From positions 37,026,694 to 37,090,693 of the forward strand of contig NC_090398.1 in NCBI RefSeq assembly GCF_036365525.1: a stretch of DNA of 64,000 nt, read 5' to 3'. The notes under the pieces were generated by a model. It was given only the letters and a program-made list of their open reading frames with translations. It did not search any database and was not told where the DNA came from. The translations under genes were made by a program, and so were the position numbers. The stretch is from Heterodontus francisci. Its lineage: Eukaryota. Positions 14,382-51,650 of the stretch are shown piece after piece; the first letter of the stretch is position 1, and the number at the start of each line of letters is the position of its first letter.

Positions 14382-15283
14382 TTATTTAATCATTAATTGA
14401 ATAATTGTTGTAAGCGTATATTTCACCATGCTCTTGAGTTGCTCTCTGAACCTGGACTGAGTCGCCCCATAAATAAATGTGTTTGTGCAGCAACTTAAGT
14501 TCATCAGCGTCCATCCAACCTCGAGGAATATATATTCAGAATCGTTGGCATCCCTGGGATCTTTTCCGACAATGAGATAATATGCTAATTGCATAGCATA
14601 CAACAACCATAGAAGTGTGAAACTGCCAGATATGCTGAAGAGTAAAATCACAGACTTCCTTCTGCTTTCCATCTCTGGATCATTGCGACTCACTCGCTTG
14701 CTCTGACCCCTCAGTCCCTTACGGACTTGACTGGCCACTAAAATGTGTCTGACTGTCAGAGTGTTGAGGAACAAAATTACAGTGAATGGCAGCAATGGGG
14801 TTAAAACGACATCAAACTGACCAAATACCACCCATCCTGGCCCAGTAAGGAAGCCTTTGCTTGGATAGCACAACCACGCCACATTGTCAGTTATCTGTCC
14901 AGGTTCATATACCAAGTAGAAGCGGACGTTTTCTAAACAGAGCAGGAGGCATGTTGCTATGAGAAGCACAGCTGCAGTTTTCTTGGTGCAATATGTTGTT
15001 TTCAGCTTCTGGCAACGAATGGCAACAAATCAATCAAATGTGAAAGTGACGGTGAACCAGACAGAACAATCGGAGGCTGCACGTCTCAGGGCAGCGATAA
15101 TACTGCACACAGGACCAATTTCCAAAAAAGATCCTGGGAAGTAATAGTAACTGATCTTAAATAGTATGACACCAGTGATAATGACTAGCAGATCCCCCAT
15201 TGCCATGGCCACCAGGTAGCGAGTGGTGCAGGTGGAGAGTCCACAGCTTCCCCAGGACAGGATCACAATCGCCACTAAATTAA
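14382..15283 (-). pseudogene. GPR139-like rhodopsin-class GPCR, exon 2 (TM1-TM7), single in-frame stop
   Basis: Acceptor tcttctctctcttacag|tt at 15283. Reads VNLVAIVILSWGSCGLSTCTTRYLVAMAMGDLLVII...CSVWFTVTFTFD*FVAIRCQKLK...SCCTNTFIYGATQSRFREQ. ORFs 15030-15275 and 14382-14969 are in one frame, split only by TGA at 15030-15032. Confidence 0.9.
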
Positions 15284-25849: not shown

Positions 25850-28800
25850 GGGTATACAAGTAGATTGGAACATAGGAGCAGGAGAAGGCCATTCAGCCCA
25901 TCGAGACTGCTCCACCATTCAATACAATCATGGTTGATCAACTACTTCAATTCTTCTTTCCAACATTATCCTCAAATCCCGTTATGTCACTTGTATTTAG
26001 AAATCAGTCAATCCATGCTTTAAACACACTCCATGTTTGTGCTTCCACATCCTCTTGGGTGAAGAATTCCAAAGATTCATAACCCTCTGAGTAAAGACAT
26101 TTCTCCTCATCTCCGTCCTAAGTGGCTTTCCCCTTATTTTGAAAATGTGTCCGCTGGTTCTGGACTCCCCAACCAGACAAAACATCTTAGTTGCAACTAC
26201 GCTGTCTATCCCGTTAAGTATTTTGGAGGTTTCAATGAGATCACCTCTCATTCTTCAAAACTGTAGAGGATAGCAAATGTTGTCCCCTTGTTCAAGAAGG
26301 GGAGTAGAGACATCCCTGGTAATTATAGACCTGTGAGCCTCACTTCGGTTGTGGGTAAAATGCTGGAAAAGGTTATAAGAGACAGGATTTATAATCATCT
26401 TGAAAAGCATAAGTTCATTAGCGATAGTCAGCACGGTTTTGTGCCGTACGGTCGTGCCTCACAAACCTTATTGAGTTTTTCGAGAAGGTAACCAAACAGG
26501 TGGATGAGGGCAAAGCAGTGGATGTGGTGTATATGGATTTCAGTAAGGCGTTTGATAAGGTTCCCCATGGTAGGCTATTGCAGAAAATACGGAAGTATGG
26601 GGTTGAAGGTGATTTAGAGCTTTGGATCAGAAATTGGCTAGCTGAAAGAAGACAGAGGGTGGTGGTTGATGGCAAATGTTCAACTTGGAGTTTAGTTACT
26701 AGTGGTGTACCGCAAGGATCTGTTTTGGGGCAACTGCTGTTTGTCAGTTTTATAAATGACCTGGAAGAGGGTGTAGAAGGGTGGGTTAGTAAATTTGCGG
26801 ATGACACTAAGGTCGGTGGAGTTGTGGATAGTGCCAAAGGATGTTGTAGGGTACAGAGGGACAGAGATAGGCTGCAGAGCTGGGCTGAGAGATGGCAAAT
26901 GGAGTTTAATGCGGAAAAGTGCAGAGTACTGGGCGCATGGGAAGATTCTTGGTAGTGTCGATGAACAGAGAGATCTTGGTGTCCAGGTGCATAAATGACT
27001 GAAGGTTGATACCCAGGTTAATAGGGCTGTTAAGAAGGCATATGGTGTGTTAGCTTTTATTAGTAGGGGAATCGAGTTTCGGAGCCACGATGTCATGCTG
27101 CAGCTGTACAAAACTCTGGTGAGACCGCACCTGGAGTATTGCGTCCAGTTCTGGTCACCGCATTATAGGAAGGATGTGGAAGCTCTGGAAAGGGTGCAGA
27201 GGAGATTTACTGGGATGTTGCCTGGTATGGAGGGAAGGTCTTAAGAGGAAAGGCTGAGGGACTTGAGGTTGTTTTCGTTGGAGAGAAGGAGGAGGAGAGG
27301 TGACTTAATAGAGACATATAAGATAATCAGAGGGTTAGATAGGGTGGATAGTGAGATTATTTTTCCTCGGATGGTGATGGCAAACACGAGGGGACATAGC
27401 TTTAAGTTGAGGGGTGATAGATATAGGACAGATGTGAGAGGTAGTTTCTTTACTCAGAGAGTAGTAGGGGTGTGGAACGCGCTGCCTGCAACAGTAGTAG
27501 ACTCGCCAACGTTAAGGGCATTTCAGTGGTCATTGGATAGACATATGGATGAAAATGGAATAGTGTAGGTCAGATGGTTTCACAGGTCGGCGCAACATCG
27601 AGTGCCGAAGGGCCTGTACTGTGCTGTAATGTTCTAATTCTAATTCGAATTCTAACACAGTCCCAGTTTCCCGAATCGTTCTTCATAGGACAGTCACACA
27701 ATCCTGGAACCAAGTCCGGTGAACCTTCATTACCCTCCATCTATGGCAAAATTATCCTGACGAAAATAAGGGGTCCAATACTGCACACAGTACTGCTGGT
27801 GCGATCAAACCAATGTTCTCTACAATTAAAGCAAGATTTCACTAATCCTGTACTCAAATCCTCATGCAATAAAGGCTAACACACCATTAGCCTTCTTCAG
27901 TGCTTGCAGTACCTGTTCGTTAGCTTTCAGTGGCTTATTAGCAAGGACACCCAGCTCTCTTTGTATATCTACATTTTATAATCTCTTACCATTTCAGAAA
28001 TATTCTGCACAAATGATCCTCCGACCAACATGGATAACCTCACATTTTTCTGCATTATATTCCATCGGTCACGTTCTTGCCCATTCACCAAGTCTGTCCA
28101 AATCCCCTTGAAGCCACTTTGCATCTTCCTCAGAACATACTTTCCCACCTACCTTTGTGTCATCCGCGAACTTGGAAATACTACAATCGCCTCCGCATCC
28201 AAATCACTGTTATATATTTTGAACAACTGGGTCCCAAGCACTGATCCCTGGGGTACCCGACTAGTCACAGCCTACCAATGCCAGAATGACCCGTTTCTTC
28301 CTACTTTCAGCTTTCTGCCTGCAAACTGATCCTTAATCCATGCCAGTATATTACTTCCTATCCCGTGTGCTTTAATTTTGCTAACCAACCCCTTATGGGG
28401 TTCTTATCAAAGGTCTTTTGAAATTCCATATATTCCATATCCACTGACTCCCCTTGATTTGTATCTCTAAATAAAAATCTATAGAACCTTTGAAGATTAT
28501 CACTAATGCATCCACTATCTTCATAGCTACATCTTTCAACTCTCTGAGATGTAGAATATCAGGTGCTGGGGACGTATAAACCTTAAGCCCCATTAATGTC
28601 TGCAATACAATCTTCTTACTAACACTAATTTCCTTCAATTTACCATTCTCCTTAATCCCTTGGATCTCGAATTCTAGGAGATTTCTTGTATCTTCCTCAC
28701 TGTAACCAGACACAAAGTAATCATTTCGCGTCTCTGCCATTTCTCTATTCCTCATAGTAAATTCGCCCGTCTCTGCCACTGATGGACCGACATTTGTCTT

Positions 28801-29701: not shown

Positions 29702-32700
29702 TATTTATTCCATAACCTTTTTTTTCGTTATTTCTCTTACATGGCCTTTATCCTTCAGGTCCATTCTCTTTTTTTGAAGGACGTTTTATACCACAGGTCC
29801 CCTTTATAGGCATACTACATAAATAAATTTACGGAAAAAAACCACAAATAAAACAAAACCAAAATTAAGATATACTTCTCGTATCTATGGTACATCCCAG
29901 CCCCTGCAGTGGCCACTGCTTGTGGAAGGCCTCGAGCAAACCTGCAGACTCCGCATGCTCCTACTCCATGGATACCCTGGTGCAAACATAACCTCGGCAG
30001 AAGGGAAAGCAATCTTGCTGAAGGCCCTCTGTCTGGACCTGTGAACTGCCGCATTTATCAGGGCCAGGAGCAGGTGTGAAAATCCTCCTGTCGACACATC
30101 CGCCTTTGCACCAGGTGTCATATATCAGCAGCTTAGCCTAACGTGCAGCCAACACTTGAGGAGCAACCACCTTAAATATTCCAGCAGGGGTTGCAAACTC
30201 ACAAACTCTATTTAAACACGGCATAGAGACATATCCAGACCATAGAACTTTCAGGCCAGGGAGTCTGTAAACTTATCAAAAGACAATTGCACGGGACTGC
30301 CCTGTGCATACCTTTTCACCCAGGTTGCCGATGTAAATGCAGAGACCTCCTCTGAGGATTGTCCTTGCCACCAGATGGCAACATGGACCGCCAGAATGTG
30401 CCTGGATGTTGGATGATGTCGAGCAATTGGAAAGTGTACAAGAGCAGTCCATAAAGGAACCCCCTCCATGTAGTGAGGAATGACACAGAGGGAATTTCCA
30501 ATAAACTGCTCAGATTGTGTGGGACCAGCTCCTGAGGAGTGTTTCGGGGCCTAGTTCTCATGAGCTGTTCCAGCTAAGTGGGAATCTGCTCAGATGTGAA
30601 CTTTCAACATTCACAAGTCCCCTTAGCACACCTGTCAGTCTGTCCCCAGAGCAGGCCTCTCTTACGAACAGAGCCCTCTCCAGAAGCAGCGGGGGAGAAC
30701 ACTGAGTACAGGTGACCATGTTCCAGACTCTGAATAGACCCTGATAAAAGGTGAACAATTCCCTCAGAGAGGCACAGATAATGGCTATCACCGTCAGCTG
30801 TGTGTTGTCTTGAAGGTAAAACCCTGATGGAAAAAATACATCACCAGTGAACACCTCCTGGCAGGATGCTGAATATATAGGTACCTTTGCATACTCCAAG
30901 ATTGCAGAGTCGCAGCATGGGTGTGAATGCACACCAGAGACTGACCACTCTCTTCAATCAGGAGACTCGGGACCATGGCAGAGAAATAGCATTTCCTCTT
31001 GCTACAGAGGAAATCGACGAGCTTCATCTGAATCTAGGCAGCAAATGTAGGGGGCGGGATGAAAGTGACCAACCGGTCCAAGATCATCGAGGCCAGCAGT
31101 TGGTTTATGACCAGCACTCGGCCCCTGTAGGAAAGCATTCGGAGCAGTCCTGTCCAGTGCCCTCACTGAGTGCTGATTTTCGTCTCCAACATCGGCCGGA
31201 TTGCCAGCCAGGCTTCCTCAGCAGGGCTCAGGTAGACTCGCAGAAAAAGGAGGTGCATAATGCTCCACGCCAAAGGTGCCAGCTCCTTTGTCAGCGACTG
31301 CTACTGACCCACCAGGATTCTGGAACATTTCTTTCAAATGATCTGAATGGTGGACGTAACAGAAAATATCTGATGGCACTGGCATATCGTTTACACGATA
31401 TGTGATCAGTGACCACGAGGGGCACATCGACCGCATAAGCCGAGAGGATGACACACATCCCTGGCCCTTGCAGAGCCAAATCTGCCAGCCTTATGTGAAG
31501 CAGGCACAGGAATGGCTCCACTAGATGGAATTTAATTGGCCGGCATGGGGCATGCCTGATGTACTCCTCTCTCAAAACAAAGATGCACCATCAAAGGCCC
31601 ATTAACTTTTACCAGACACTGTGTGGTGGCGCACGAAAGTCGGACCCGGCCCACAAAATGCAGCCCGAGTCTGAAAACGCACAAAGCCTGGGAAATACAT
31701 TTGTAATCAACTCTGTCTAAAACCTTCTCCTGGACAAGAGGAAGAAAGTTGACCAACGGTCCAGTCCTCTGAGAAAAAAGGATTAGCTCACAGGCCAGGT
31801 GGATACTGTCCTGGATGGAGCGACCCAAGACTATGTCGAATTGGTCAGGATAAAAACTGTGGGCCACCACGGAGCCCAGATAGTTGGGCATAGCCTCGGC
31901 AAAATCTTATAATTGTCCGACGGAGATAGACTGAACGCCAGTACTTAAGCAAGCAGAGATTGCCCCTCTTTGGCAGCAGTATAACTGCCCTGGGACACAA
32001 ACCTGGCCTCTCTCCAGTTTCTAAGCTTTCTCCTGGACCCCTGCATAATCGACCACCACGATGTTCCAAAACATCCGAAGGATCTCCACTGCCAACCCGT
32101 CCGGAGCAGGAGACTTGTCCACCGAGGGCTGGAAGTGGATGCCTCTCAGCTCCGCCAACCTAACAGGAGCCTCCAGTTGATTGCTGCCTCCAGGCTGATC
32201 CTCAGTAGGTTCTCTCACAAATCTCTGCACGCATCCTCGGTGGACGAATCCAGAGAGAACAACTTGCATAATAGGAGATTGGACTCCAAGTCGAGCACCT
32301 CCCTTTCCAGATGCTCGACTTCGGCTAACCATTTCTAGCTCGATTTAATTGCGCACTTCTGACATAAGGCACAGACATGAATCTTGTTCATTTCCCACCA
32401 GGTGAAGGCACTGGAGTCAGGATGGAGATATTGCAGAACATCCACCAAGCTGAGAGAGCTGTTCAATTCCCTTAGCTTGTCCACCTTTTCTTAATCACGC
32501 TGGAGGCTGGAGAGAGTCCTCACTTCGAGGATACACCTGAAGATCCCCCACTTAGCCCCACCCCACCGCCACCCCCAGGCACTTATTTATCGAAGCGTGA
32601 TTGAAATGCACTTGGCCTGGGCGCATGCAAATTCATGTCACCCATATAAATGGCAAACTGCAACAAGCCACCTCGGACAAGATCTTTGACTTACAAGACC

Positions 32701-35040
32701 TGCAGTTGAAAGGTCAGGACCAACAAGATAGCCACTCCACTCAAAATAGGAGCAAATAGGGGTGAAGTGACTCATGCAGACCCCGCAATGCCACAACAGG
32801 AACCAGCTGGCTTCGTCGCCCAGACTGGTGCAGTTTTCCTGCAGAAAATTCACTGTATACCTCCCTTCCTGAGGACTGAGAGATTTTGAAATCTGTGGAG
32901 CCTTCCTCAGCAGCCCAGAGAGGAACACCTTGGATTGGTGCTACATGGCTGTTTCCACACCTGCGCCCTTCCCCATTATCTAAACAGCAGCATGGACGGA
33001 TCTAATGAGAAGCGCCAGATTCAAACACTGGTTGAGGGCCAACTGAACTTTACTGTGGAAACCCCTGCAGGTTGCAAGGAAATCCTGATGTTCCACAACT
33101 GGGATGAGATAAAACTAGGTAGGTGGCATGAGGGTGTCCACATCCTCACTGATGAATGATTTCAATTCTTCCTCTGTGCCCAACACCAAGTCCACATCTT
33201 CCTCTGAGTAGGCACCCCAGCGGCCGACACATCCATCATACACTGTGAGGCAGATGACCTGGCCACAGCAGCAGCTTCCGCCACTGTCACGATCGTACCC
33301 ACAAGATCGATGAAGAGGAACCCACTCTGAGGTCCTTTCGGTCAACTGGGCCTATGAGTGCCAGCAGCACAAAAACCTCTCTCCCTCTCCATCCCTCAGA
33401 TAGTGAGCGGACCAGGGGAGAAAGTTGCTACCGACCCTAGACATCCAGCTGGGGCTGGGACGAGAAGTGGAATGAGCAGGCCATTTCCTGCTCACAAGTG
33501 CCCAGTGGCTCAACAGGTGGGGCATTGTTTACATTAACAGCTGGATCGTGTGCATCCTGGGCGGGACCGTGCTTAACCTGGGAGGGCCGGCATTGTGAGG
33601 CCGCGCCCTCATTTCCACCCAGGGAATGCGAAATAGCAGCAGATGAAGAGACTTCTCCAGGAGCGTTCCCAGGCTCCCCCGCCACAAGTAGGTCTCCACT
33701 CACTCACCGAGCCAGGACTGAGGTTTATCCTGTCTTCACCTCCCCTAGATGCTGCAGGTGGTGGAGAACCAGCTCACCTGGTATGAAAGTCAAAATATCT
33801 GAAAAGGTGACCCACAATGCAGTGGTCTCCACTGGCATAAGAATCCAGTCCACCATGAGTCCCTTATTCAGGCCCAGATAAACCACTTGCTCACTCTTCA
33901 GGCAAAAATACAGACCTCCTGCACATTTTGGGGGAAGCGACAATGGCTGAAGTGCCGACAGCCTTGGCCACTGCTTTTACTGTTATCTGTCTTATAATGC
34001 TTGGTCTGACGTAGCTCATGGCCCAATGCTTTGGTACTTTTGTTTCTAATGGCGACAGTGCAACAGGAGCAGATGCAGCTTCTGTACTAACATGCGATAG
34101 ACGGTCCCCACTACAGAAGCAAAAGGGCTTGCCATGGGTTCGAAGAGCCACCCCAACCCCTAAAAAGATATAAAAACGAGAGATGCTGGAAATTCTCCGC
34201 AGGTCTGGCAGCATAGTGAAGAAAGACGCAGAGTGAACTTTTCAGGTCAGTGAACCTTCATCAGAAATGAAACGTTAACTCTGCTTCTCTCTCCACAGAT
34301 GTTGCCAGACCTGCTGAGTATTTCCAGCATTTCTTGTTTTTATTTCAGATTTCGAGCATGTGCAGTATTTTGCTTTTACCCTAAAAATATATGGTTTGGT
34401 AATGAGAGTAGAGGAGGATAGAGTTGGCAAGGAAAAGTGGAGAATGTGTCTGGGTGGTGGAAGGTAGAGAAAGGCTTGGAAGGACGTTCATTCAACGGGT
34501 TGTTGGTGCACCTCAATGCAGTTAGTACAAGGTTCAAAATGCCAGTTACCTTCCAGTTGGGGCGGTGTGGGGGATGGGTGATGGGGGGGCGTGGCTGTGT
34601 GGGGGCTTCACACTGGTCCGCTGGAGCCACCCGGTAATCTCTCCTTTAATGTCACACCAGGACTTTCTCCATACATGCAGCACTAGCTATCCCCATCATG
34701 GAAGTTGTGGTGGGGCAAGAGCTTCCTGTGTGCAAGATGGAAAAAGCACAGGACAGGTATCAGGGCTCACTCGAGATTTTGGCAACCCCACCCGTGATTC
34801 TTCTGGCCTCTCTCCCTCTTCCAATAGTCCAAACAAAGACTGCTCCAGGTGCTGAAAACCCGCCTATCCAAAAGGAATTGCAGCCTTCTTGCCTCCCCAG
34901 TAGATGCGAGCACCTGCACACTTAACAGATATCTCCACTCATCGATTATTGCTCCGCTGCAGTTGCTATTCCATTAGCTGCTACAAGTGCTGCTGCTTCA
35001 ATTGCTTGCAGTCAGGAAGAACTCCAAATGCACCAAACAA
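29702..35040 (-). mobile_element. Tx1-clade non-LTR retrotransposon A, decayed
   Basis: Minus ORFs DKSPAPDGLAVE, LLPKRGNLCLLKYWR, LDRVDYK, LVEPFLCLLHIRL..ILSAYAVDV; ORF1-like ILTFIPGELVLHHLQHLGEV (33725-33943); 3' UTR similar to element B. Confidence 0.8.
34172..34378. mobile_element. Inverted-repeat Penelope terminal fragment inserted in Tx1 element A, with 14-bp TSD
   Basis: Arms 34171-34244 and 34268-34343 are reverse complements; flanks ccctaaaaagatat (34158-34171) and ccctaaaaatatat (34379-34392). Confidence 0.75.
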
Positions 35041-35209
35041 TCAGAGCTGTAAATGCTCTGGGATTGTCTGATGAGAGAGTGTAGAGGGAGCTTTACTCTG
35101 TATCTAAGCCCGATTTTTTTTCTTTTGTTTTAGCTTTTCTCTGCATCGAACCCCGTGCTGTACTTGCCCTGGGAATGTTTGATGGGAAAGTGTAAATGGT
35201 GCAGCTAAT

Positions 35210-36390
35210 CCCCTGAGGTGAGACTGACTGCCCTTGACATCAAGGCAGCATTTGACCGAATATGGCATCAAGGAGCCCTAGCAAAACAGGAGACAATCGG
35301 AATCGGGGGAAAACTCACCGCTGGTTGGAGTCATACCTAGTGCAAAGGAAAATAGTTGTGGTTGTTGGCATTCAATCATCTGAGCTCCAGGACATCACTG
35401 CAGGAGTTCCTCAGGGTAGTTTCCTCGGCCTAACCATTTTCAACTGCTTCATCAATGATCTTCCTTCAATTATAAGGTTCAGAAGTGGGGATGTTCGCTG
35501 ATGATTGCACAATGTTCAGCACCATTCACTACTCCTCTGTGTTTAAAGCAGTCCGTGTCGAAATACAGCAAGGACTGGACAATATCCAGGCTTGGGCTGA
35601 CAGGTGACTATTAACATTTTTGCCACACAAATGCCAGGCAATGACCGTCTGAAACAAGAGAGATTCTAACTATCTCCCCTTGGCATTCAATGACATTATG
35701 ATCGATAAATCCACCACCATCGACATCCTGGGAGTTACCATTGGCCGGAAACTGAACTGCAGCAGCAATATAAATACAGCGGCTACAGGATCAGTTTGGA
35801 GGCTAGGGGTCCTGCGGTGAGTAACTCACCTCCTGACTGCTCAAGTCTGTCCACCATCCACAAGGACAGGGCAGGAGTGTGATGGAATACTCTCAACTTG
35901 CCTGGATGGGTGCAGCTCCAACAACACTCAAGAAGCTCAACATCATCCAGGATAAAGCAGCCGGCTTGATTACCACCCTATCTGCAAACATTCAATCCCT
36001 CCACCACCGCCGCACAGCGTCAGCAGTGTGTAGTATCAACAAGATTCACTGCAGCAACGCGCCAAGGCTCCTTAGCCAGCAACCTCCAAACCCGTGACCT
36101 CTACCAACAAGAAGGACAGATGCAGCAGGTGAACGGAGACACCACCACCTTCCACTTCCCCTCCAAGCCACACACAATCCTGACTTGGAACTACATCACC
36201 GTTCCTTCACCGTTGCTGTGCCAAAATGCTGGAACTCCCCTCCTAACAACACTGTAGCTTTATCTACAGCACGTGGAATGCAGCGGGTCAAGAAGGCAAC
36301 TCACCATCTATTTCTCAAGGGCAATTAGGGATGAGTAATAAAAGATCCAGCGACAACCACATCGCACGAACGAATATATATATAAAAAAA
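35210..36390 (+). mobile_element. CR1/L2-group LINE (second family) 3' portion
   Basis: ALDIKAAFDRIWH, AGVPQGSFLGLTIFNCFINDL, atgttcgctgatgat (MFADD), 3' tail gggcaattagggatgag...cgaatatata. Confidence 0.85.
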
Positions 36391-36462
36391 TGCCTTGCTG
36401 TTCCTTCCCTGGGAGTGTTTGATGGGGCAGTGCAGAGGGAGCGTTACTCAGCATCTCATTGC

Positions 36463-39400
36463 TGTCTTTCCTTTTCTTCATTTTTTGAAGCCTTTATGCA
36501 CCAGGCCCCTTTTAACTAATATGTCGCGGGGACCTTTAATCCTCAGGCCCCCTTTATATACATTTTATAAAATAACTTTATTGAAATCGAATAACTAAAA
36601 CAAAACTCAAATTAGAATGTCATTCTCAGCATCGATGCTGCAATCCAGTTCCTGTGGTGCCCACCGGTCATGGAAGGCCTCAGGAATACTGGTGGACACA
36701 GCATGGTCCTTCTCCAGGGACACCCGGACGCGAATGTAACCTCGGAAGAGGGGCAGGAATTCAGAGCGGACGGACCCCGTGATGGTCCGCAGCCTAGACC
36801 TGTGAAATGCCACCTTGGCCAAGCCCAGGAGCGCACCAATAAGCGGCTCTTACCAGCCCACCCCACTCTGCATTGGGTGCCCAAAGATCAGGTGCATGAG
36901 GCAGAGGTGCAGATAAAACTTGAGGAGCGTCCCATTTAAATACTTGAACAAAGGCTGTAACCTCGCACATATCATGTATACATGGAACACGGACTCGTCC
37001 AGGCCGCAGAAATTACAGGCAGCCTGGGAGTCCGTGAACCGACTTAAACGTCGACTACACGGGAGTGGCCTGTACAGTACCCGCCATCCCAGGTCCCCAA
37101 TGTAAAGGGGGAGGACTTACGCCTAGTCAGACCTCCACCGGGCTCTCCGCTCACTACCAATCGAAGCACGGATGTCCATGGTCTGTCTGGGTGGCAGAAG
37201 ATGGCAAGGAACTGCAGAGTGTGCAGGGGCAGCCGATACAGGAAACCCCTCTGCGCCGTGTGGCACGGAGGACATTTCCAAGAGGGAACTCAGGTTGCGT
37301 GGGAACGCCACCCGAGGAGGGATTCGGGGCCTGGGTTCAATTAGCAGTTCCAGCTGAGCGGGGTCAGCTCGGCCAGGAGTGCTCTGCAAACCAGTCTCTG
37401 CTCGGTACCCACAGTGAGGGGCAGCCCGGGGCTTCTGCTATTCCACTGCCCATTGGTCCGTACATGGAGCCAGAAGCACAGATTGCCAAGGTGCTCTCCT
37501 CCACCTGCGAGCAAGCGCCCTGACTGGAGGCGACCATGTTCCAGACTCAGAACTGATCCTGGTAAAACACAGGCAACTCCCTCAGAGAGGCACGGCTAAC
37601 ATTCTCTACCGGGAGCTCTGTGTCGTCTTGGAGGCAGTGCCCCAGTGCAAAATTACGTCTTCAGCCTACACCATCTGGGATGATTCCGGACATACAGGTA
37701 TCTCTGCAGGGACCGAAGGTGAAGGTTCGCAGCTCGAGAATCAGGACTGCAGCAGAGACTCAGTGGTTCCTCGTGCCCCAGAAGAAATCGACAAGCTTCT
37801 TCTGGATCTTGGTGGCGAATGCAGGTGGCAGAGCCAAAGTGACCAACCGGTACCTCAGCATCGAGGGTACCATTTGGTTTATCACCAGCGCTCAGCCCCC
37901 TGTAGGAAAGCAGTTTTAACAGTCCTGTTCAGCGCCTTAGCCAACTAGTGACTTTCAACTCCAACTCCTGCCAGTTTACCAGACAGGCATTCTTAGCGGA
38001 GCTAAGGTGGTCTCCAAGATGGAGGAGGCGCGTGGGGCTCCATGCAAAAGGTGTTATTTGCACCGGCAGGGGGTCCACCGCCTCTAACCCACCAGGAGTC
38101 CAGAATATTTCTCCCAATTGATCCTCATGGAGGACGCGGCAGAAAAGGGTCTGCTGGCACTCAAGCATCCTGCACACGTGAACGGGATCTGTGGCCATGA
38201 GGAGCACATCATCAATGTAAGCCGAGAGGACGACTCGTATGCCCAGCCCATGCAGAGCAAAACCCGTTAACCTGCCGCGAAGCAGGCACAGGAATGGCTC
38301 CAGCCAGATGGTATACAACTGGCTGGACATGGGGCATCTCTGACACACTCCTCTCCCAAAGCGAGGGGCCGCTGTCAAGGACCGATTAACTGACGAAACA
38401 CTTTGCGGTGGCATGTAAAAGTTGACCAGGACCACAAAGTTAGCCCGTTACTGAACGTGCGCAGAGTCTCAAAAAGGTATTCATGATCAACTCTGTCCAA
38501 AGCCAACTACTGATCGGGGGAGAGAAAGGCGACCGACAGACCAGTCCTCTGGGAAAGATGAATCAGGTCCCGGACCAGGTGTTTATTGTTCTGGATGGAC
38601 CGGCCCTGGACCGTGTTCGGGGTGGTTCATGTGGGCCAGCACGGAGCCCAGGTGGGGAAACATAGCCCGAGCAAAGATTTTATAATCCAGGCCGAGGAGG
38701 TCGATTGGACGCGAATTCTTAAGCAAGTGCATATCGCCCTTTTTCAGCAGCAGGACGATGCATCTCCTCGGTCGCCTGGCTTTCCCCCAGCTCCCGCACG
38801 TAATCATCCCCCAGGATATCCCAGAATGCCATGGGGAACTCAACGGTCATCTAATCCTTCCCCGGGTAATTGCCCCTCAAGAACTGGTGGAGGGCGCCGG
38901 TCAGCTCTGCCGACATAAGCAGAGCCTTCAATGTTTTGGCGCCCTCCAGGCTGAGCTTCATCAGGTCCTTCCACAAAACTCTGCACGGGTCCTCGCTGAA
39001 TTAATATGGAGAGAAAAACGGACTGTAATATGTACTGACCAGGAGGCCCATTCCATCCGGAACCGTAATGGAGCATCCCTCCTCGGCCAGCAGCTCAACG
39101 GTCTGTTTACAGGCACCCTACCTTTTTTTTCCAGGGAGTAGAAAAAGGGTGAGGCGCTCTCGAAATCGTCCATGATATGGATCTGTGATCTCATGTACGT
39201 GCCTCAGGATCCTACGAGCGGCAGGTTCTTCAGCGCGCCCTTCTCTTTGCCCGCAAAAGCATGACTGAGACAGGAATCCAAGTTGAACACGCCTCCAGGC
39301 GCCCGATCCCGGCTTGCTGCCTTTTGGTCGACCCCTTCGCATACTCCTGACAGAAGACATGGATGTGAGTCTTGCCCACATACCACCATAGCCTCAAGGA

Positions 39401-42400
39401 GGAGAACTCCCCCCCGCCCCGCTTTCTTTTCCACTAGGCGCAGAATCACTCATCATCCAGCAGGCGTTTGTTAAACAGCCACACCAGGTGATGGTCCAAT
39501 CACGACACCAAGCGCCTGGAGGCCATCAAGACACAGGAGACGTACGCTTGTGAAATGTAGAGGCAGTCGATTCGGGACCCTTTTCCTCCAGACCACCATG
39601 TGAAGGCGCTGGAGTCGGTATGGAGATTGCACCAGACGTGCACCTATTTGAAGAAGCTGATCTGATGCCTCAACATGTACACTGAACCTTGGCCGCACTG
39701 GGGACTGGAATGATCCCTCAGCTCGTGGGTACTGTTAAAATCCCCCCTGATGATGATGCACTCACCGATGTCAATAGAGTTCAAAAGAGCGGAGACTTCT
39801 TCAAAGAAACACGCTTGCAACACGCTGGGACTGTGCGCGTTCACGTTCAGAAATTGGAGTGGCATGCTACCCAGGTGAATGACGAGGTGGAGCAAACTGC
39901 CTCCTTGCCCCTTCGGATTTCTGCCTGAAAAGTCGAGGAGATTAAGATAGCCACCCTACTAGAAATAGGGGTAAGGTGACTCATGTCGACTCCATCCTGC
40001 CACTCCAGGAGCCAGATGGCTTCATTTCCCGGAATGGTGTCTCTTTTTCCTGCAGAAGGCTCACCGCAAATCTCCCTTTTCTGAGTACTGAGAGATTGTT
40101 TGATCTACAGAAGGACCCTCTACTGCCATTGATGCTGAGGCTGGCTAAGGTTTTGTTCCTGTCAAAAGTACTTAGAAACCGTCAACAAAATCTTACTGTG
40201 AGGAGGAAGCTGGAATGCATCTGGCCTTCCACTCCACCAGCAACCCATTGAGGAATGTTTTAAACCGGCGCCTCTCAACCAGTTTCATGCCCCGCCTTCT
40301 TGAGGGCGACAAAGACAGACTGGATCATTCGCGCCAGATTCGATGATCATCCAAGGGCCAGCTGAACTTTATTGCAGCAACTCCTGCATGCTCCGAAGAT
40401 GTCCCGGAGTTCCCTGATATGGATGATAGGAGACTCAGTTGAAGGCAAGAGGGAGTCCACCACCTCACTGACGATGCATTTAAGAATATCCGCCGTGCCC
40501 CACAACGGCTCCTCATCCTCCTCCAAGACTTCACCGCCAGTAGCCAACCCACGCACCACAGACTGAGGGGCTGGCTTCCCAACCGCGTCAGCTGGTCTCA
40601 CCACCAGCACAATCCCAGCCCCAGGATCGATGGCGGAGGAGTCCTCTGCCATATCCAGCCGAATATGCGACCGGAGGCAGAGAGAGGAGGCCATCCCCCG
40701 CTCCGCCAGCGCCCATAGACCCAGCTGATGGGAAATTACACAAATTGCCCTCTGGGTAAGGCACATCCCGGGCAGTAGCATCAGTCTCCCATGCAGGACA
40801 CCCGGCCCAGTGGCAGATAGAATATTTGCACCCATCGGGTCCACAGGCTCCCTCACCATGTGAGGGCACCCCCACCTCTGGAGTCGCTGTGATTAGAGGG
40901 GCATCCCCGGCAGCCCTTCCGTTGCGAGGAGCAGTCAGTTCCCGCCCAGGGCTCGAGGCCTTCATGGAGCCTCAGGACCCGCGCCAGCTGATGGGCCTTG
41001 CAACTCACTGACCTCGTCAGAGCATGGATGTCTCCTCCACTTATTTTGGTAGTGGTGCAGAGTCTCAGTGACCTTCATTTCAGCAGCGACCTCTGCTTCT
41101 CCCTTCGTGCTCCCTTGCCCAGTTTCTTGGGACCTAGCTCAGCCTTGGGGTAGGTGGCCTCCCCTGGTTCAATCGTAGCGCTGACGTCAGGCTCAGGTCC
41201 ATTTTTTGTGCCCGGGGGCACACCTTCGCGTGTTTTTTTTTGCGCCTTGCCTTCCATCCACAAGGGCGGGTCTCCACCTCCCCACAGGAAGCCTGGAAGT
41301 CTATGGCCTCTGGAACCGCCGATGTGGTGTCTGATGGAGGTGTGGTGTGAGCGGGAGGAGGTGCATCAGCGCCAACCTGGGCTCCTGAGGTGGAGTTGGA
41401 GGCCAGAAGGTTGCAGCAGTTATTATGAACGTGCCCCACCCCCTTACACTGCGCCCTGTCCGAAGTCCAGCAGACGAGGTAGGCTGGCCTCTGGAATTTC
41501 ACATTGAAATAGCCTTCTAAGACCTCTTCCCGCGCCAGCTGCATAAAGAGCTGGTGGCGGAAGGAGTAGACATGCCAGAGGCTGTTCTCCACAAGACCGA
41601 GCCGGCCTATGGGAGACACCTGAACTTACCTCCCCCCAGATTGTGCAGATGGGGGAGGAGTAGCTTCCTGGGAATGAAGCACGGGACGTTTGATAATATG
41701 ATCATATGTACACTATCCCCTGGAGTGTCCACCAGCAGGAAAGCCCTCACCACAGCGAGCCCCTTACTCTGTGCCAGAGTCATGGCCACTCGGACTTCAG
41801 GATGACACAGCCATCTTGTATATCTTCGAGGCTGCATCCATGGCCGAGGGGTCAACAACCTTGGTTATTGCCTTTATGAAGGCCTCAATGGACTTGTTGG
41901 GGTGGGATAACTCTTCACCCCAAGGAAGGATGTTATTAATTTAACGGGTAATGGGACTACATGGGCAGCCACAGAGGCTGCAGCTGCATGGTAGCGCCCC
42001 CCTCCCCCACGCCCCCCAACCCCCACCGGTGAAGGGCGTGCTGATGGTCTAAAAGCTAAACCCACTTTGAGTTCTCGGTTGCAAATCGAACAAACTGAAA
42101 GATTCACAAGGGATACTTAATTAAAAAAAAGCAGGTTCGGGGCGAGGCTTAGGATATCGAGGAGAGGAAGAGGCAGGCGGTAAGGGATGTCTTGCTCTCA
42201 GGAGGTGGTGCACACAGCACACTTAAAATAGTCTTTGCAAGTACTATTTGTTTTCTGGTCTTTTGATTAGGGTAGACGTCTTCAACTGGGTCAGCTGAAG
42301 CTGCTAATGCACGATTTATCCCCTTCCATCTCTTTAGCCGGGCAGCATCAGCTGACCAAGCCTTAACAATTGGGGTTGTTTGCGGGGGTTGGGAGTGAGT

Positions 42401-44269: not shown

Positions 44270-45477
44270 AAGATCATACTAAATAGGTGCTGGAGTTGGC
44301 TATTCAGCCCCTCGAGCCTGCTCTTCCTTTCAATATGTTCATGGCTGATCTGATCGTGAACTCAACTGCACATTCCTGCCTGCCCCCCATAACCCTTGAG
44401 TCCATTGTCGACCACAAATCTGTCTAACGCAGCCCTGAATATCTTCAATGAACCAACCTCCACTGCACTCTGGGGAAGATAATTCCAAAGTCTAACCAAC
44501 TGCTGGGAGAAAAGAAAAGTTCTTCTCATCTTTGTCATAAATGGGAGGCCATTAATGTTTACCTGCGCCCCCTAGTTCTAGACTCCCCCACAATGAGAAC
44601 ATCCTCCCAGCATCCACACTGTCAAGCCCCTCAAAATCTTATCTGTTTCAATAAGATCTCCTCTCATTCTTCTAAACTCCAATGAGTATAGGCCCAACTT
44701 GCTCAACCATCCCTCATAAGACAACACCTTCATCCCAGGAATCAGCCAAGTGAACTATCTCTGAACTGATTCCAATACATCCAGGCCTGACCATTTATCC
44801 ACTTTCAAAGATACCACACACCTTAATATTTCCCTCTCACTCTGTTTATCCCATCCAATATTTCATGCTCCTCTTTAACTACAATGTCTGCATCATTCCC
44901 TCCGCTTTTATGAGGACAGACACAAAGTATTCATGAAGTGCCATGCTCACATCTCCCACCTCCGCACACACGTTCCCTTTTTGGTCTCTTATACTCTATC
45001 CTTAATTATCCTCCTGCTCTTAATGCATTTATAAAACATTTTGCAGTTTCCTTGGTTTTACTTGACAATATTTTTTGCAGCCATCACTTTGCTTTCCTAA
45101 TTTGCATTTTAGTTTTACCCCTGGACTTTCGACACTCTTCTCGGATTTTTGTGGTATTAAACTCCCGGTATCTGACATAACCTTCCCGTTTGTGTCTTGT
45201 CCTATCCAGTTAGCTCCTTGATATCCAAGGGGCTCTATATTTGGGACTCTCAGCCTTTTTGGCTTTTTACGAACATATTTGTTCTCAACCCTCATTAACT
45301 CTCACTGCTCTGACACTGATTTACCTTTAGGTAGCTGTTTCCAATCCACTTTGCTTAACCCTCTCCTCCCTGGAACTACCATCTCACGTGCACCCGCTGA
45401 AGGGCCCTCACATCCATCCAAACGTGTAGTGACCAGAACTGGATGCAGTATTCCAGTTGTGGCCCAAACAGAGTTTT
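44270..45477 (-). mobile_element. Old CR1 fragments; the last one is the host of the young CR1 and resumes at 50412
   Basis: CR1 3'-end reverse complement (ggagttggctattcagcccctcgagcctg, cctctcattcttctaaactcc) and ccagaactggatgcagtattccag (rc of LEYCIQFW). Confidence 0.7.
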
Positions 45478-46318
45478 GGTGACTGCAGCGTGGATAGCAA
45501 CGGAGGTGCGTGAACGGGCTTACAGATTTGAAGTCAATTTCAGCGTAAGTTTAAAAGTGAATTCCCTTTTGTTTTCGGAGGACCAGGGGACTGCTGGGTA
45601 AGGAAAAAGGTATATATTTGTGTGGTTTAGAATCTCTTTCTTTTAGTTTCGGTGACTGCAGCGTGGATAGCAACGGAGGTGCGTGAACGGGCTGACAGCT
45701 GTGAAGTCAATTTCAGCGTAAGTTTAAAAGTGAATTCCCTTTTGTTTTCGGAGGACCAGGGGACTGCTGGGTAAGGAAAAAGGTATATATTTGTGTGGTT
45801 TAGAATCTCTTTCTTTTAGTTTCGGTGACTGCAGCGTGGATAGCAACGGAGGTGCGTGAACGGGCTTACAGCTGTGAAGTCAATTTCAGCGTAAGTTTAA
45901 AAGTGAATTCCCTTTTGTTTTCGGAGGACCAGGGGACTGCTGGGTAAGGAAAAAGGTATATATTTGTGTGGTTTAGAATCTCTTTCTTTTAGTTTCGGTG
46001 ACTGCAGCGTGGATAGCAACGGAGGTGCGTGAACGGGCTTACAGCTGTGAAGTCAATTTCAGCGTAAGTTTAAAAGTGAATTCCCTTTTGTTTTCGGAGG
46101 ACCAGGGGACTGCTGGGTAAGGAAAAAGGTATATATTTGTGTGGTTTAGAATCTCTTTCTTTTAGTTTCGGTGACTGCAGCGTGGATAGCAACGGAGGTG
46201 CGTGAACGGGCTTACAGCTGTGAAGTCAATTTCAGAGTAAGTTTAAAAGTGAATTCCCTTTTGTTTTCGGAGGACCAGGGGACTGCTGGGTAAGGAAAAA
46301 GGTATATATTTGTGTGGT
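45478..46318 (+). repeat. 173-bp tandem monomer array (~4.9 copies) in the CR1 5' UTR
   Basis: Unit ggtgactgcagcgtggatagc... starts at 45478, 45651, 45824, 45997, 46170; only a few substitutions between copies. Confidence 0.97.
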
Positions 46319-46328
46319 GGCTGTACCC

Positions 46329-46352
46329 GAGACACTACACGTGTAGTGTCTC
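46329..46352. promoter_or_regulatory. Perfect 24-bp palindrome centred on E-box CACGTG
   Basis: gagacactacac|gtgtagtgtctc. Confidence 0.7.
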
Positions 46353-46517
46353 CCACCCACCCTCCTCCTCTAACCATAAAAAAAGGACTCTGGTGTGTTG
46401 ATAAGGTAAGCTTTTTATTTAGGAAGTTCTGTCCGTTGGATTGCTAACCTAACAAGTTTTGACTTTTTGTTTTTTTTGGTTTTTCAGTAGATTTGTTGGG
46501 AATTTGGAATAGTGGGA

Positions 46518-47436
46518 ATGGAGGTTAAGGCAGTTGCATGTTCCTCCTTCAGAATGTGGGTCGCCAAGAGTGTCCCTGCTGACTGCATCTGTGGGAAGTG
46601 CACCCAACTCCAGCTCTTCGAGAACCGCGTCAGGGAACTGGAGCTGGAGCTGGATGAACTTCGGATCATTCGGGAGGCGGAGGAGGTTATTGAGAGTAGT
46701 TATGGGGAAGTAGTCACACCTCAGGTAAAAGAAGTAGGTAGATGGGTTACCGTCAGGGGAAGGAGAGGGAACCAGCAGGCAGTGCAGGGATCCCCTGTGG
46801 CCGTTTCCCTCAACAACAGGTATACCGTTTTGGATACTGTTGCGGGGGACGACTTACCAGGGGTAAGCAATGGGGTACAGATATCTGGCACAGAGTCTGT
46901 CCCTGTTGCTCAGAAGGGAAGGGGGAAGAGGAGCAGAACATTAGTCATTGGGGACTCCATAGTTAGGGGAACAGATAGGAGGTTCTGTGGGAACGAGAGA
47001 GACTCACGGTTGGTATGTTGCCTCCCAGGTTCGTGATGTCTCGGATCGTATTTTTGGGATCCTTAATGGGGAGGGGGAGCAGCCCCAAGTCGTGGTCCAT
47101 ATAGGCACCAACGACATAGGTAGGAAGAGAGATGGGGATTTAAGACAGAAATTTAGGGAGCTAGGGTGGAAGCTTAGAGCGAGAACAAACAGAGTTGTTA
47201 TCTCTGGGCTGTTGCCCGTGCCACGTGATAGCGAAGCGAGGAATAGGGAGAGAGAGGAGTTGAACACGTGGCTGCAGGGATGGTGCAGGAGGGAGGGTTT
47301 TGGTTTCCTGGATAATTGGGGCTCTTTCTGGGGTAGGTGGGACCTCTACAAACAGGATGGTCTTCACCTGAACCAGAGGGGTACCAATATCCTGGGGGGG
47401 AGGTTTGCTAGTGCTCTTCTGGGGGGTTTAAACTAA
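46518..47436 (+). pseudogene. CR1 ORF1 (zinc finger, coiled coil, SGNH esterase), frameshifted at ~47030
   Basis: CSSF..CGKC, LENRVRELELELDEL-like zipper, GDSIVRG (block I), HIGTND (block III), DGLHL (block V), split over ORFs 46512-47036 and 46987-47436. Confidence 0.88.
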
Positions 47437-47507
47437 TTCAGCAGGGGAATGGGAACCTAAATTGTAGTGCCAGTGTACAGGATGTTGAGAGTAGTGAGGT
47501 CAGGGAT

Positions 47508-50318
47508 ATGGTTACAAGGACGCAAGAGGGCACTGGCAAGCAAGAACCTGGTTTAAAGTGTGTCTATTTCAACGCCAGGAGCATCCGGAATAAGGTGGGT
47601 GAGCTTGAAGCATGGGTTGGTACCTGGGATCTCGATGTAGTGGCCATTTCGGAGACATGGGTAGAGCAGGGGCAGGAATGGATGTTGCAGATTCCGGGAT
47701 TTAGATGTTTCAGTAAGAACAGAGAAGATGGTAAAAGAGGGGGGTGGGGTGTGGCATTGTTAATCAAGGAGAGTATTACAGCGACAGAAAGGACGTTTGA
47801 GGACTCGGCTACTGAGGTAGTATGGGCTGAGGTTAGAAACAGGAGAGGTGAGGTTACCCTGTTGGGAGTCTTTTATAGACCTCCGAATAGTTCCAGAGAT
47901 GTAGAGGAAAGGATAGCGAAGATGATTCTCGACAGGGGTGAGAGTAACAGGGTAGTTGTTATGGGGGAGTTTAACTTTCCAAATATCGACTGGAAATACT
48001 ATAGTTCGAGTACTTTAGATGGGTCAGTTTTTGTCCAGTGTGTGCAGGAGGATTTTCTGACACAGTATGTAGACAGGCCAACCAGGGGCGATGCCACATT
48101 GGATTTGGTACTGGGAAATGAACAAGGCCAGGTGTTAGATTTAGATGTAGGTGAGCACTTTGGTGATAGTGATCACAATTCGGTTAGGTTTACCTTAGCG
48201 ATGGGCAGGGACAGGTATATACCGCAGGGCAAGAATTATAACTGGGGGAAAGGAAATTATGATGCGATTAGGCAAGATTTAGGATGCGTAGGATGGGGAA
48301 GGAAACTGCAGGGGATGGGAACAATCGAAATGTGGAGCTTATTCAAGGAGCAGCTACTGCGTGTCCTTGATAAGTATGTACCTGTGAGGCAGGGAGGAAG
48401 TTGTCGTGCGAGGGAGCCGTGGTTTACTAAAGAAGTTGAAGCGCTTGTCAAGAGGAAGAAGAAGGCTTATGTTAGGATGAGACGTGAAGGCTCAGTTAGG
48501 GCGCTTGAGAGCTACAAGCTAGCCAGGAAGGATCGAAAGGGAGAGCTAAGAAGAGCAAGGAGAGGACACGAGAAGTCATTGGTGGATCGGATCAGGGAAA
48601 ACCCTAAGGCTATCTATAGGTATATCAGGAATAAAGGAATGACTAGAGTTAGATTAGGGCCAATCAAGGATAGTAGTGGGAAGTTGTGTGTGGAATCAGA
48701 GGAGATAGGGGAAGTGTTAAATGAATATTTTGCGTCAGTATTTACAGTAGAGAATGAAAATGTTCTTGAGAATACTGAGATTCAGGCTACGAGGCTAGAT
48801 GGGATTGAGGTTCACAAGGAGGAGGTGTTAGCAATTTTGGAAAGTGTGAAAATAGATAAGTCGCCTGGGCCAGATGGGATTTATCCTAGGATTCTCTGGG
48901 AAGCTAGGGAGGAGATTGCAGAGCCTTTGTCCTTGATCTTTATGTCGTCATTGTCGACAGGAATAGTGCCGGAAGACTGGAGGATTGCAAATGTTGTCCC
49001 CTTGTTCAAGAAGGGGAGTAGAGACAGCCCTGGTAATTATAGACCTGTGAGCCTTACTTCGGTTGTGGGTAAAATGTTGGAAAAGGTTATAAGAGACAGG
49101 ATTTATAATCATCTTGAAAAGAATAAGTACATTAGAGATAGTCAGCACGGTTTTGTGACGGGTAGGTCGTGCCTCACAAACCTTATTGAGTTTTTCGAGA
49201 AGGTGACCAAACAGGTGGATGAGGGTAAAGCAGTGGATGTGGTGTATATGGATTTCAGTAAGGCGTTTGATAAGGTTCCCCACGGTAGGCTATTGCAGAA
49301 AATACGCAAGTATGGGGTTGAAGGTGATTTAGAGCTTTGGATCAGAAATTGGCTAGCTGAAAGAAGACAGAGGGTGGTGGTTGATGGCAAATGTTCATCC
49401 TGGAGTTTAGTTACTAGTAGTGTACCGCAAGGATCTGTTTTGGGGCCACTGCTGTTTGTCATTTTTATAAATGACCTGGAAGAGGGTGTAGAAGGGTGGG
49501 TTAGTAAATTTGCAGATGACACTAAGGTCGGTGGAGTTGTGGATAGTGCCGAAGGATGTTGTCGGGTACAGAGAGACATAGATAGGCTGCAGAGCTGGGC
49601 TGAGAGATGGCAAATGGAGTTTAATGCGGAAAAGTGTGAGGTGATTCACTTTGGAAGGAGTAACAGGAATGCAGAGTACTGGGCTAATGGGAAGATTCTT
49701 GGTAGTGTAGATGAACAGAGAGATCTTGGTGTCCAGGTGCATAAATCCCTGAAGGTTGCTAACCAGGTTAATAGGGCTGTTAAGAAGGCATATGGTGTGT
49801 TAGCTTTTATTAGTAGGGGGGTCGAGTTTCGGAGCCACGAGGTCATGCTGCAGCTGTACAAAACTCTGGTGAGACCGCACCTGGAGTATTGCGTGCAGTT
49901 CTGGTCACCGCATTCTAGGAAGGATGTGGAAGCTATGGAAAGGGTGCAGAGGAGATTTACTAGGATGTTGCCTGGTATGGAGGGAAGGTCTTACGAGGAA
50001 AGGCTGAGGGACTTGAGGTTGTTTTCGTTGGAGAGAAGGAGGAGGAGAGGTGACTTAATAGAGACATATAAGATAATCAGAGGGTTAGATAGGGTGGATA
50101 GTGAGCGTCTTTTTCCTCGGATGGTGATGGCAAACACGAGGGGACATAGCTTCAAGTTGAGGGGTGATAGATATCGGACAGATGTGAGAGGTAGTTTCTT
50201 TATTCAGAGCGTAGTAAGGGCGTGGAACGCCCTGCCTGCAGCAGTAGTAGATTCGCCAACTTTAAGGGCATTTAAGTGGACATTGGATAGACACATGGAT
50301 GAAAATGGAATAGTGTAG
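47508..50318 (+). CDS. CR1 ORF2: apurinic-like endonuclease plus reverse transcriptase, 936 aa open
   Basis: YFNARSI, ISETW, YRPP, GEFN, SDH; KSPGPDG, NYRPVSLTS, YMDFSKAFD, PQGSVLGP, FADD, LEYCVQFWSP. Confidence 0.95.
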   Translation: MVTRTQEGTGKQEPGLKCVYFNARSIRNKVGELEAWVGTWDLDVVAISETWVEQGQEWMLQIPGFRCFSKNREDGKRGGWGVALLIKESITATERTFEDSATEVVWAEVRNRRGEVTLLGVFYRPPNSSRDVEERIAKMILDRGESNRVVVMGEFNFPNIDWKYYSSSTLDGSVFVQCVQEDFLTQYVDRPTRGDATLDLVLGNEQGQVLDLDVGEHFGDSDHNSVRFTLAMGRDRYIPQGKNYNWGKGNYDAIRQDLGCVGWGRKLQGMGTIEMWSLFKEQLLRVLDKYVPVRQGGSCRAREPWFTKEVEALVKRKKKAYVRMRREGSVRALESYKLARKDRKGELRRARRGHEKSLVDRIRENPKAIYRYIRNKGMTRVRLGPIKDSSGKLCVESEEIGEVLNEYFASVFTVENENVLENTEIQATRLDGIEVHKEEVLAILESVKIDKSPGPDGIYPRILWEAREEIAEPLSLIFMSSLSTGIVPEDWRIANVVPLFKKGSRDSPGNYRPVSLTSVVGKMLEKVIRDRIYNHLEKNKYIRDSQHGFVTGRSCLTNLIEFFEKVTKQVDEGKAVDVVYMDFSKAFDKVPHGRLLQKIRKYGVEGDLELWIRNWLAERRQRVVVDGKCSSWSLVTSSVPQGSVLGPLLFVIFINDLEEGVEGWVSKFADDTKVGGVVDSAEGCCRVQRDIDRLQSWAERWQMEFNAEKCEVIHFGRSNRNAEYWANGKILGSVDEQRDLGVQVHKSLKVANQVNRAVKKAYGVLAFISRGVEFRSHEVMLQLYKTLVRPHLEYCVQFWSPHSRKDVEAMERVQRRFTRMLPGMEGRSYEERLRDLRLFSLERRRRRGDLIETYKIIRGLDRVDSERLFPRMVMANTRGHSFKLRGDRYRTDVRGSFFIQSVVRAWNALPAAVVDSPTLRAFKWTLDRHMDENGIV

Positions 50319-50411
50319 GTCAGATGGTTTCACAGGTCGGCGCAACATCGAGGGCCGAAGGGCCTGTACTGCGCTGTAATGTTCTAAATTCTAAATTCTA
50401 AAATTCTAAAT

Positions 50412-51650
50412 TAAAAAGGTTCAGCACAACTTCCATGTTTTGGTACACAACGCCTCTCTTCATGAAGCCTAAGATCCCATATGGTTTGCTGACTACTCTC
50501 TCAATATGACCTGCCACCTTCAAAGTTGTATGCACAAGCACGCCCTGCACACTTCAATGAGAATATATTGTCTCTCCCTATCTCTTCTGCCAAAATACAT
50601 CACCTCACAATTTCCCCGTATTAAATTGCATCTGAAACTTGTCTGCCCATTCTGCTCGCCTATCTATGTCATGTTGCATTCGATTGGTATCATCGTCGCT
50701 GTTTGTATCTCCTCCAAGTTTCGTATCATTGGCAAATATTGAAATTTTACTCTGTGTTCTGAAATCCAAGTCATTTATATATATCAGAAAAAAATGACAG
50801 TGGTTCTAGTACTGACTATTGGGGAACACCGCTGTCTGATATCTTCCAGTCTGTAAAACAACCATCTACCTCGATTCGCTGTTTTCTGTCCTTTTGCATT
50901 TTTCTTATTCAAGCTGACACTGGCCCTCCTATTCCGTGAGCCTCAGTTTTGTTAACCAGACTTTTATATTTTCCTTGGTCAAACATTTCTTAAAATCCAT
51001 TTAAATCCATTGCATTCCCTTAATCAACCTTCTCTGTTACTTCGTCAAACAATTCAATTAGATTAGTCAAGTACTTTCTGCCTTTTACAAATCTATGCTG
51101 GCTTTCCATCATTAACTCGAATACCTCCAAGTGCCTGTTAATTTTTTTTCTCTTCCAAGTATTTACTTAACTCTCCTTTTGAAATCGACTATTGAATCTG
51201 TATCGGCCACTATCATGCATTATATTTCAATCAGAAGCACTTGAGTAAAAGAAATCTTCATGTCTCCTCCGTTTTTTCTTTGCCAATCACCTTCAATTGG
51301 TGCTCCCTGGTTATCAATCCTTCAGCCATTGGAAACAGTTCCTCTTTATTCCCTCGATCTAAAGCTTCCATAATTTTAAACATCTCTATCAAATCTCCAT
51401 TTACGCTTCCCTGTTCTAAAGACAACAACCCCAGCTTCTCTATCAGCGTAACTGTAATCATCTCATCTCTGGAATCATTCCAGTAAATCTCTTCTGTGCA
51501 TTCACCAAAGCCTCAAAGTCCTTCATAAAGTGTGGTCCCAGAACTGGACACTATCTTCCAGCTGGGTAAAAAACTATTATCTAGCATCGCTTCCTGACAT
51601 TTATATTCTCGACCTCTGTTTATAAAGGCCAGGATCCCATCTGCTTTATA
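50412..51650 (-). mobile_element. Old CR1 fragments (host continuation and a further piece)
   Basis: Minus ORF EKLGLLSLEQGSVNGDLIEMFKIM; ccagaactggacactat. Confidence 0.7.

Follow-up and report, generated by a model that had tools for sequence, protein, structure and literature searches.

Known systems

Human L1 SpIREs are the closest described parallel. In the account of Larson et al. (2018, PMC5860796), about 2% of full-length L1 elements carry a spliced 5' UTR. The CR1-type element of Heterodontus francisci considered here resembles them in the GT-AG splicing of LINE RNA within the 5' UTR and its copying into the genome, as well as in the loss of promoter parts, the apparent dead-end fate of the copies, and the way that changes in the UTR shift splice use. 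The spliced share of 3–4% for its monomer donors is likewise close to that in human L1. Unlike the L1 SpIREs, the element belongs to the CR1 clade and has several donors in tandem monomers with one main acceptor, where L1 has one donor and several acceptors; the part lost is a TATA-like box of a predicted promoter, and the monomer arrays are spliced unit by unit.

The non-LTR element TART of Drosophila also has spliced transcripts, its introns being in antisense transcripts (Maxwell et al. 2006, PMC1636488). In SVA_F1 (MAST2) and STK40-SVA, as presented by Damert (2018, PMC6139936), a new 5' end was joined by splicing, as in four chimeric copies described below. There a host exon was joined to a non-autonomous SVA, whereas here a LINE promoter module is joined to the UTR of another LINE family, in only 4 copies. 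Vertebrate canonical CR1 elements have the same esterase ORF1 and endonuclease-RT ORF2, according to the CR1-group survey of Stuart et al. (2026, PMC13343379), which describes 5' repeat arrays of 100–500 bp for some elements of the group that lack ORF1, and in the main text of which neither "splic" nor "promoter" occurs.

No report of spliced CR1 copies was found in the literature searched, which lay mostly outside the subscription journals. The splicing described here is real and is known in kind; what is new is the clade and the architecture. A zebrafish LINE, reportedly ZfL2 of the L2 clade, is by title the subject of a 2007 paper on functional splice sites by Tamura, Kajikawa and Okada; the likeness, by that title, is in the presence of splice sites in a fish LINE, and the clade differs. 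Spliced retrocopies are hereby extended from human L1 to a CR1-type element, a moderate surprise given that the basic phenomenon is known.

The element in the window

The window is the whole 64,000-nucleotide stretch of H. francisci DNA that was analysed, and copies of its element were sought in the 6.0 Gb assembly of the species. The element (Table 1) has an ORF2 with endonuclease and reverse transcriptase and an ORF1 with an esterase domain, as do LINEs of the CR1 group, and its proteins match PF03372, PF14529, PF00078, and PF13472. It is labelled canonical CR1 as opposed to L2 because of its ORF1 type, the L2 elements of cartilaginous fish being without an ORF1, and because of its tail. Compared with a sister copy, the ORF1 of the window copy has a 9-nt gap after 46557 and a frame-shifting 8-nt gap after 47027.

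Table 1. Features of the CR1-type element, in window coordinates
Feature	Position	Strand	Copies or loci
CR1-type LINE copy: monomer array, unique 5' UTR, esterase ORF1, endonuclease-RT ORF2, TTCTAAA tail	45472..50412	+	
5' UTR monomers, tandem, 173 nt, 4.9 units (about five), 99% alike	45472..46318	+	
CTTTTAG, monomer start; commonest 5' end of copies (predicted start site); its AG is the monomer acceptor, from the joints	46159..46165 (also 45640, 45813, 45986)	+	
TATA-like box in monomer tail, 29 nt upstream of the C of CTTTTAG; putative promoter role	46130..46138 (also 45611, 45784, 45957; orphan copy 46303)	+	
Donor D1, GTAAGT, one per monomer	46237..46242 (also 45545, 45718, 45891, 46064)	+	35 loci joined to ORF1-side acceptor
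Donor D2, GTAAGG, one per monomer; GTAAGT in older subfamilies	46290..46295	+	28 loci joined to ORF1-side acceptor
Weak donor D3, GTATAT	46302..46307	+	2 loci, one duplicated insertion
82-nt intron proposed from sequence, donor D4 to acceptor A1	46406..46487	+	removed at 1 locus; 1 further locus to 46490
Tandem CTAAC branch-like motifs, CTAACCTAAC	46444..46453	+	kept in only 51/105 copies
TTGAC, branch-point candidate (A at 46462) of better position and conservation than the tandem CTAAC	46459..46463	+	95/105 copies
Tandem acceptor CAG|TAG|	46485..46490	+	60 loci join at 46488, 8 at 46491
ORF1, GDSL/SGNH esterase domain, frame-shifted in window copy (sister: 311 aa)	46518..47436	+	
ORF2 (endonuclease and reverse transcriptase), 968 aa from stop to stop	47412..50318	+	

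D2 opens the monomer tail, and the monomer acceptor closes it. From D1 the intron is 102 nt to the next monomer acceptor; where it starts in the last monomer and ends at 46487, it measures 251 nt. From D2 to the ORF1-side acceptor it is 198 or 201 nt. The tandem acceptor is of what we take to be the NAGNAG type, and U1 and TATA are likewise used here as textbook labels.

An earlier sequence-only reading had proposed a canonical-looking spliceosomal intron of 82 nt in the 5' UTR. Its signals are all in place, with AAG|GTAAGC at 46406, CTAACCTAAC at 46444–46453, and TTTCAG ending at 46487, and the ORF1 ATG does lie 30 nt past the acceptor, this being the sole ATG within 45460–46530. Judged by its letters, the predicted intron has the complete U2-type set of GT donor, branch point, pyrimidine tract, and AG acceptor. 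Its length in family A, the family of the window copy, is 76–85 nt in 82 copies and 68 nt in one. Conservation of the signals, proposed as a check on the intron, is found at its two ends, the donor being common to several families and the acceptor CAG present in 81 of 83 family-A copies, which suggests that the acceptor itself may be under selection. It does not extend to the tandem CTAAC motif, which is not a family trait; the TTGAC at -26, with its A 26 nt before the acceptor, had gone unnoted. Conservation of the donor exceeds that of the intron taken as a whole, in line with a candidate role as a U1 site.

Spliced copies in the genome

At 68 loci in the assembly an upstream point is joined directly to the ORF1-side acceptor, at 46488 or at 46491, and 67 of these joints begin at a GT donor (D1 in 35, D2 in 28, D3 in 2, and D4 in only 2). 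Of the 68, 63 were read in detail and 5 only listed. In exact-word searches of the same genome, 2,234 unspliced copies carry the acceptor word and 1,628 the exon-donor word. Several copies (G000 C21, C25, C1:11.21-11.26 Mb) have identical flanks and are segmental or tandem duplications, so that the locus counts are slightly inflated.

Exact GT-AG removal in an RNA-derived product is thus seen in 2 retrocopies for the proposed D4 intron and in 65 for the upstream donors. Genomic copies precisely without the 82 nt had been suggested as evidence to look for, and one copy does lack exactly 46406–46487 (1/1 match in a search allowing gaps of 3 to 12). A second lacks 46406–46490, 85 nt, through use of the second AG of CAG|TAG. 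Both D4-spliced copies are short at the 5' end, starting at 46322 and 46337. The proposal of a spliceable intron therefore stands, since copies without it exist, but its donor is the least used and contributes a minor part of the splicing; the donors and acceptor of each monomer, which had not been noticed, account for most of it.

Among 100 acceptor-holding copies sampled without bias, 68 extend to a monomer and 13 more to about D4. The spliced share is about 0.1% of copies reaching D4, as against about 3–4% for the monomer donors. Both rates derive from searches with exact words and from a small set of copies in one genome, drawn from a single contig within its first 209 Mb. Monomer-to-monomer joints are commoner, a D1-to-monomer joint being carried by 7/36 multi-monomer copies (among 142 copies). 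In L108 and L117 four successive monomers are joined, with a spacing of 123 nt and 103 nt; these arrays reflect either introns of 48–59 nt, which would be very short for a vertebrate, or the skipping of whole monomers.

No live donor remains upstream of the joint in 55 of 63 spliced copies. D1 is dead in 22 of 28 copies spliced from D2, against 4 of the 57 that are unspliced (Fisher p 3e-11), and D2 takes over where D1 is dead.

Loss of the predicted promoter

The 5' ends of 17 of 30 copies fall at the C or the first T of CTTTTAG. Of the 14 tail types most often found, 13 have a TATA-like box 29–30 nt upstream of the C of CTTTT; this holds across monomer families, though the intervening sequence differs. 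From this spacing and from the copy ends we infer a TATA function for the box and a start site at CTTTTAG. With its C and four subsequent T, the predicted start at 46159–46165 is similar to a pyrimidine start of the TCT/TOP type. A second start site, driven by the last TATA-like box (46303), was considered and rejected: 23 of 111 copies end within 46300–46389, spread out and with no pile at 46333.

Since the tail spans D2 to the monomer acceptor, every joint from D1 or D2 deletes the TATA-like tail. Indeed, it is absent from 61 of 63 spliced copies, while 2 keep one. Splicing thus takes away the predicted TATA core promoter, and for that reason the resulting copies are probably dead ends.

The explanation that we consider probable is that the 5' UTR of this CR1 LINE holds a real but rarely removed intron system, with several GT donors and a common acceptor at 46487, from which spliced RNAs are copied back into the genome as likely dead ends for want of the predicted core promoter. 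Each monomer tail, with its D2, TATA-like box, and pyrimidine run, would supply the core promoter of the monomer that follows, with RNA starting at CTTTTAG, as the piled 5' ends suggest. Once transcribed, the pyrimidine run and its AG serve as a 3' splice site, as the joints record. The joints also record that the spliceosome occasionally pairs the first live donor with the acceptor of a monomer or with the one on the ORF1 side. The ORFs being left intact, a spliced RNA could insert once, as the copies demonstrate, and a copy without the TATA tail would not be transcribed again. The strong donors would probably be retained as promoter-proximal U1 sites, not for intron removal; transcription can be increased by a 5' splice site on its own, as described in PMC10228655. 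That the intron and a TATA-type core promoter overlap would explain in concrete terms why LINEs retain promoter monomers in tandem and yet are mostly unspliced.

Fate of the spliced copies and alternative explanations

All 18 spliced copies that were read end to end are complete and reach the TTCTAA tail, and they lie at separate sites except for one duplicated pair. In an ORF1 tree of 176 rows the 61 spliced rows require 39 changes (shuffled mean 50.5), and in a tree of 114 rows the spliced copies require 14; the larger tree took in 61 of the 68 spliced loci, and 4 rows with short ORF1 cover were omitted from each. In the 176-row tree no all-spliced clade other than the duplicated pair has both support and branch length. 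The fact that the spliced rows are otherwise scattered, with no supported clade, argues that splicing has been recurrent and has founded no lineage. A spliced master lineage had appeared as a 10-copy spliced clade in the 114-row tree, which dissolved among unspliced copies in the 176-row tree after subfamily sampling. The copies share with SpIREs an exact 5' UTR junction, the hallmarks of retrotransposition, and the absence of further rounds on the trees. They are not SpIREs as first defined, that is, L1-derived, the esterase ORF1 and the microsatellite tail being traits of the CR1 group.

These copies bear directly on the division of labour suggested by the sequence-only reading, in which most element RNA would be spliced and serve as mRNA, unspliced RNA would be the preferred template, and spliced copies would be leakage. 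The strong splice signals conserved across subfamilies, the presence of only 0.1–4% of copies in spliced form, and the acceptor 30 nt upstream of the first ATG are as such a division would predict. Against this, spliced RNAs have been reverse-transcribed in at least 67 insertions, complete in all that were examined, which leaves the split unsupported. There is also no upstream ATG for splicing to remove, for which reason such removal was rejected as the purpose of splicing, and family B seems to be without a usable ORF1-side acceptor. Contigs from 8 of 23 runs of relatives, which share no more than 0.35 of words and cover the intron, gave no RNA joint between any donor and 46488, a weak test in that contigs drop rare forms; the RNA status was guessed for 7 of the 8 runs. 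In run X9 a contig of depth 2 reaches D2 and then passes into monomer-head-like sequence, which is too weak to count. Taken together, this makes the division of labour unlikely. Retention of the intron would require no special mechanism if splicing is merely rare, by analogy with human L1.

It is also rather improbable that splicing acts as a tuned brake or host control, pruning promoter arrays and limiting the subfamilies that over-splice. The frequency of D1-to-monomer joints would be consistent with this, as would the D1-dead group, which is estimated to be about 20% spliced (9–47%) compared with about 3.5% of D1-live copies, and which is rare. These figures come, however, from one genome and a small sample (the first 209 Mb of one contig), and the rarity of a subfamily has many possible causes.

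Deletions in DNA, or template switches by the reverse transcriptase on short shared letters, do occur, as at L039 and L088, where the joint has no GT or no AG and falls on short shared letters, and the D3 and D4 joints have two letters (AG) common to both sides of the break. For D1 and D2 this explanation is refuted. D2 joints share one letter and D1 joints, with the D1 sequence of the window, share none. Splicing has made use of each AG in the tandem acceptor, and several donors and several acceptors in three element families follow the GT-AG rule. Searches blind to the breakpoint found almost no others: with flanking anchors and a free gap of 0–12, 35 of 35 matches join D1 to 46488 (32) or 46491 (3), and in a second such search the right break is at 46488 in 8 of 8. 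On the D2 side, 67 matches comprise 7 decayed donors, 59 joints to an AG acceptor (23 ORF1-side and 36 at monomer heads; a single letter is altered in 3 of the 59), and 1 deletion on shared letters, while 6 of 6 D4 joints are to an AG acceptor. Exact GT-AG joints with so little shared sequence leave splicing followed by reverse transcription as the only explanation, and an origin of the joints without splicing is very improbable.

Least credible of all is that the intron-like sequence is kept unremoved as a shield from HUSH-like surveillance of intronless RNA, since, although introns are described as counteracting HUSH even when unspliced, the same source has protection rising with intron length and spliced stuffer sequences not being protective (PMC8770142), and the introns here are of 49–251 nt.

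Families, chimeras, and a possible promoter exchange

Family B (17 of 100 sampled copies; e.g. L119, L142, L177) shares the 5' UTR exon and donor D4 with family A, with a different intron body and an ORF1 starting MAGQVMC, a pattern that by sequence comparison is one of ORF1/UTR module exchange between families. Family C also shares the exon and the donor, with another intron body and ORF1 start. Monomer joints are present in family B; joints from D2 or D4 to its ORF1 side numbered 0 in genome joint searches, in one of which 21/21 matches were decayed donors and to which exons beginning with G are invisible.

In four chimeras (L265, L266, L267, L268; G000 C13, C5, C10, C37), which are separate insertions, D4 is joined exactly after the AG of a family-C monomer. 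Upstream of the joint they have a monomer module of another type and the unique exon; their ORF1 starts MAGDLRP or MAEDLRP, and one keeps a TATA tail. They could descend from one master that was itself spliced, or come from a single parent locus whose RNA was spliced repeatedly. That the chimeras keep upstream monomers means that the products of splicing are not all dead ends.

Under the explanation preferred above, of a rarely removed intron system, the monomer might tentatively be seen as a self-relaying unit of U1 site, TATA box, and initiator doubling as 3' splice site, so that the spliceosome would both prune promoter arrays and swap promoters between LINE families. The four chimeras would then be cases of promoter exchange by splicing, a possible route to 5' UTR replacement in LINE evolution, and they render splice-mediated promoter swapping testable. 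The genome itself keeps a record of splice-site choice and frequency in each subfamily, and is in this respect a rare natural read-out of germline LINE splicing.

Seven copies (L274, L277, L285, L295, L298, L304, L310) have a family-A ORF1 with yet another upstream UTR type, which also bears a GTAAGT donor.

Other features of the window

A second RT fragment at 26428–26955 (+) is nearly identical to ORF2 of the CR1-type family of the window. The region 30881–41625 is GC-richer, and its minus strand carries interrupted RT-like frames that probably belong to another LINE family. At 14382–15029 (-) there is a frame of 215 aa that, by eye, is like the C-terminal part of a seven-helix receptor.
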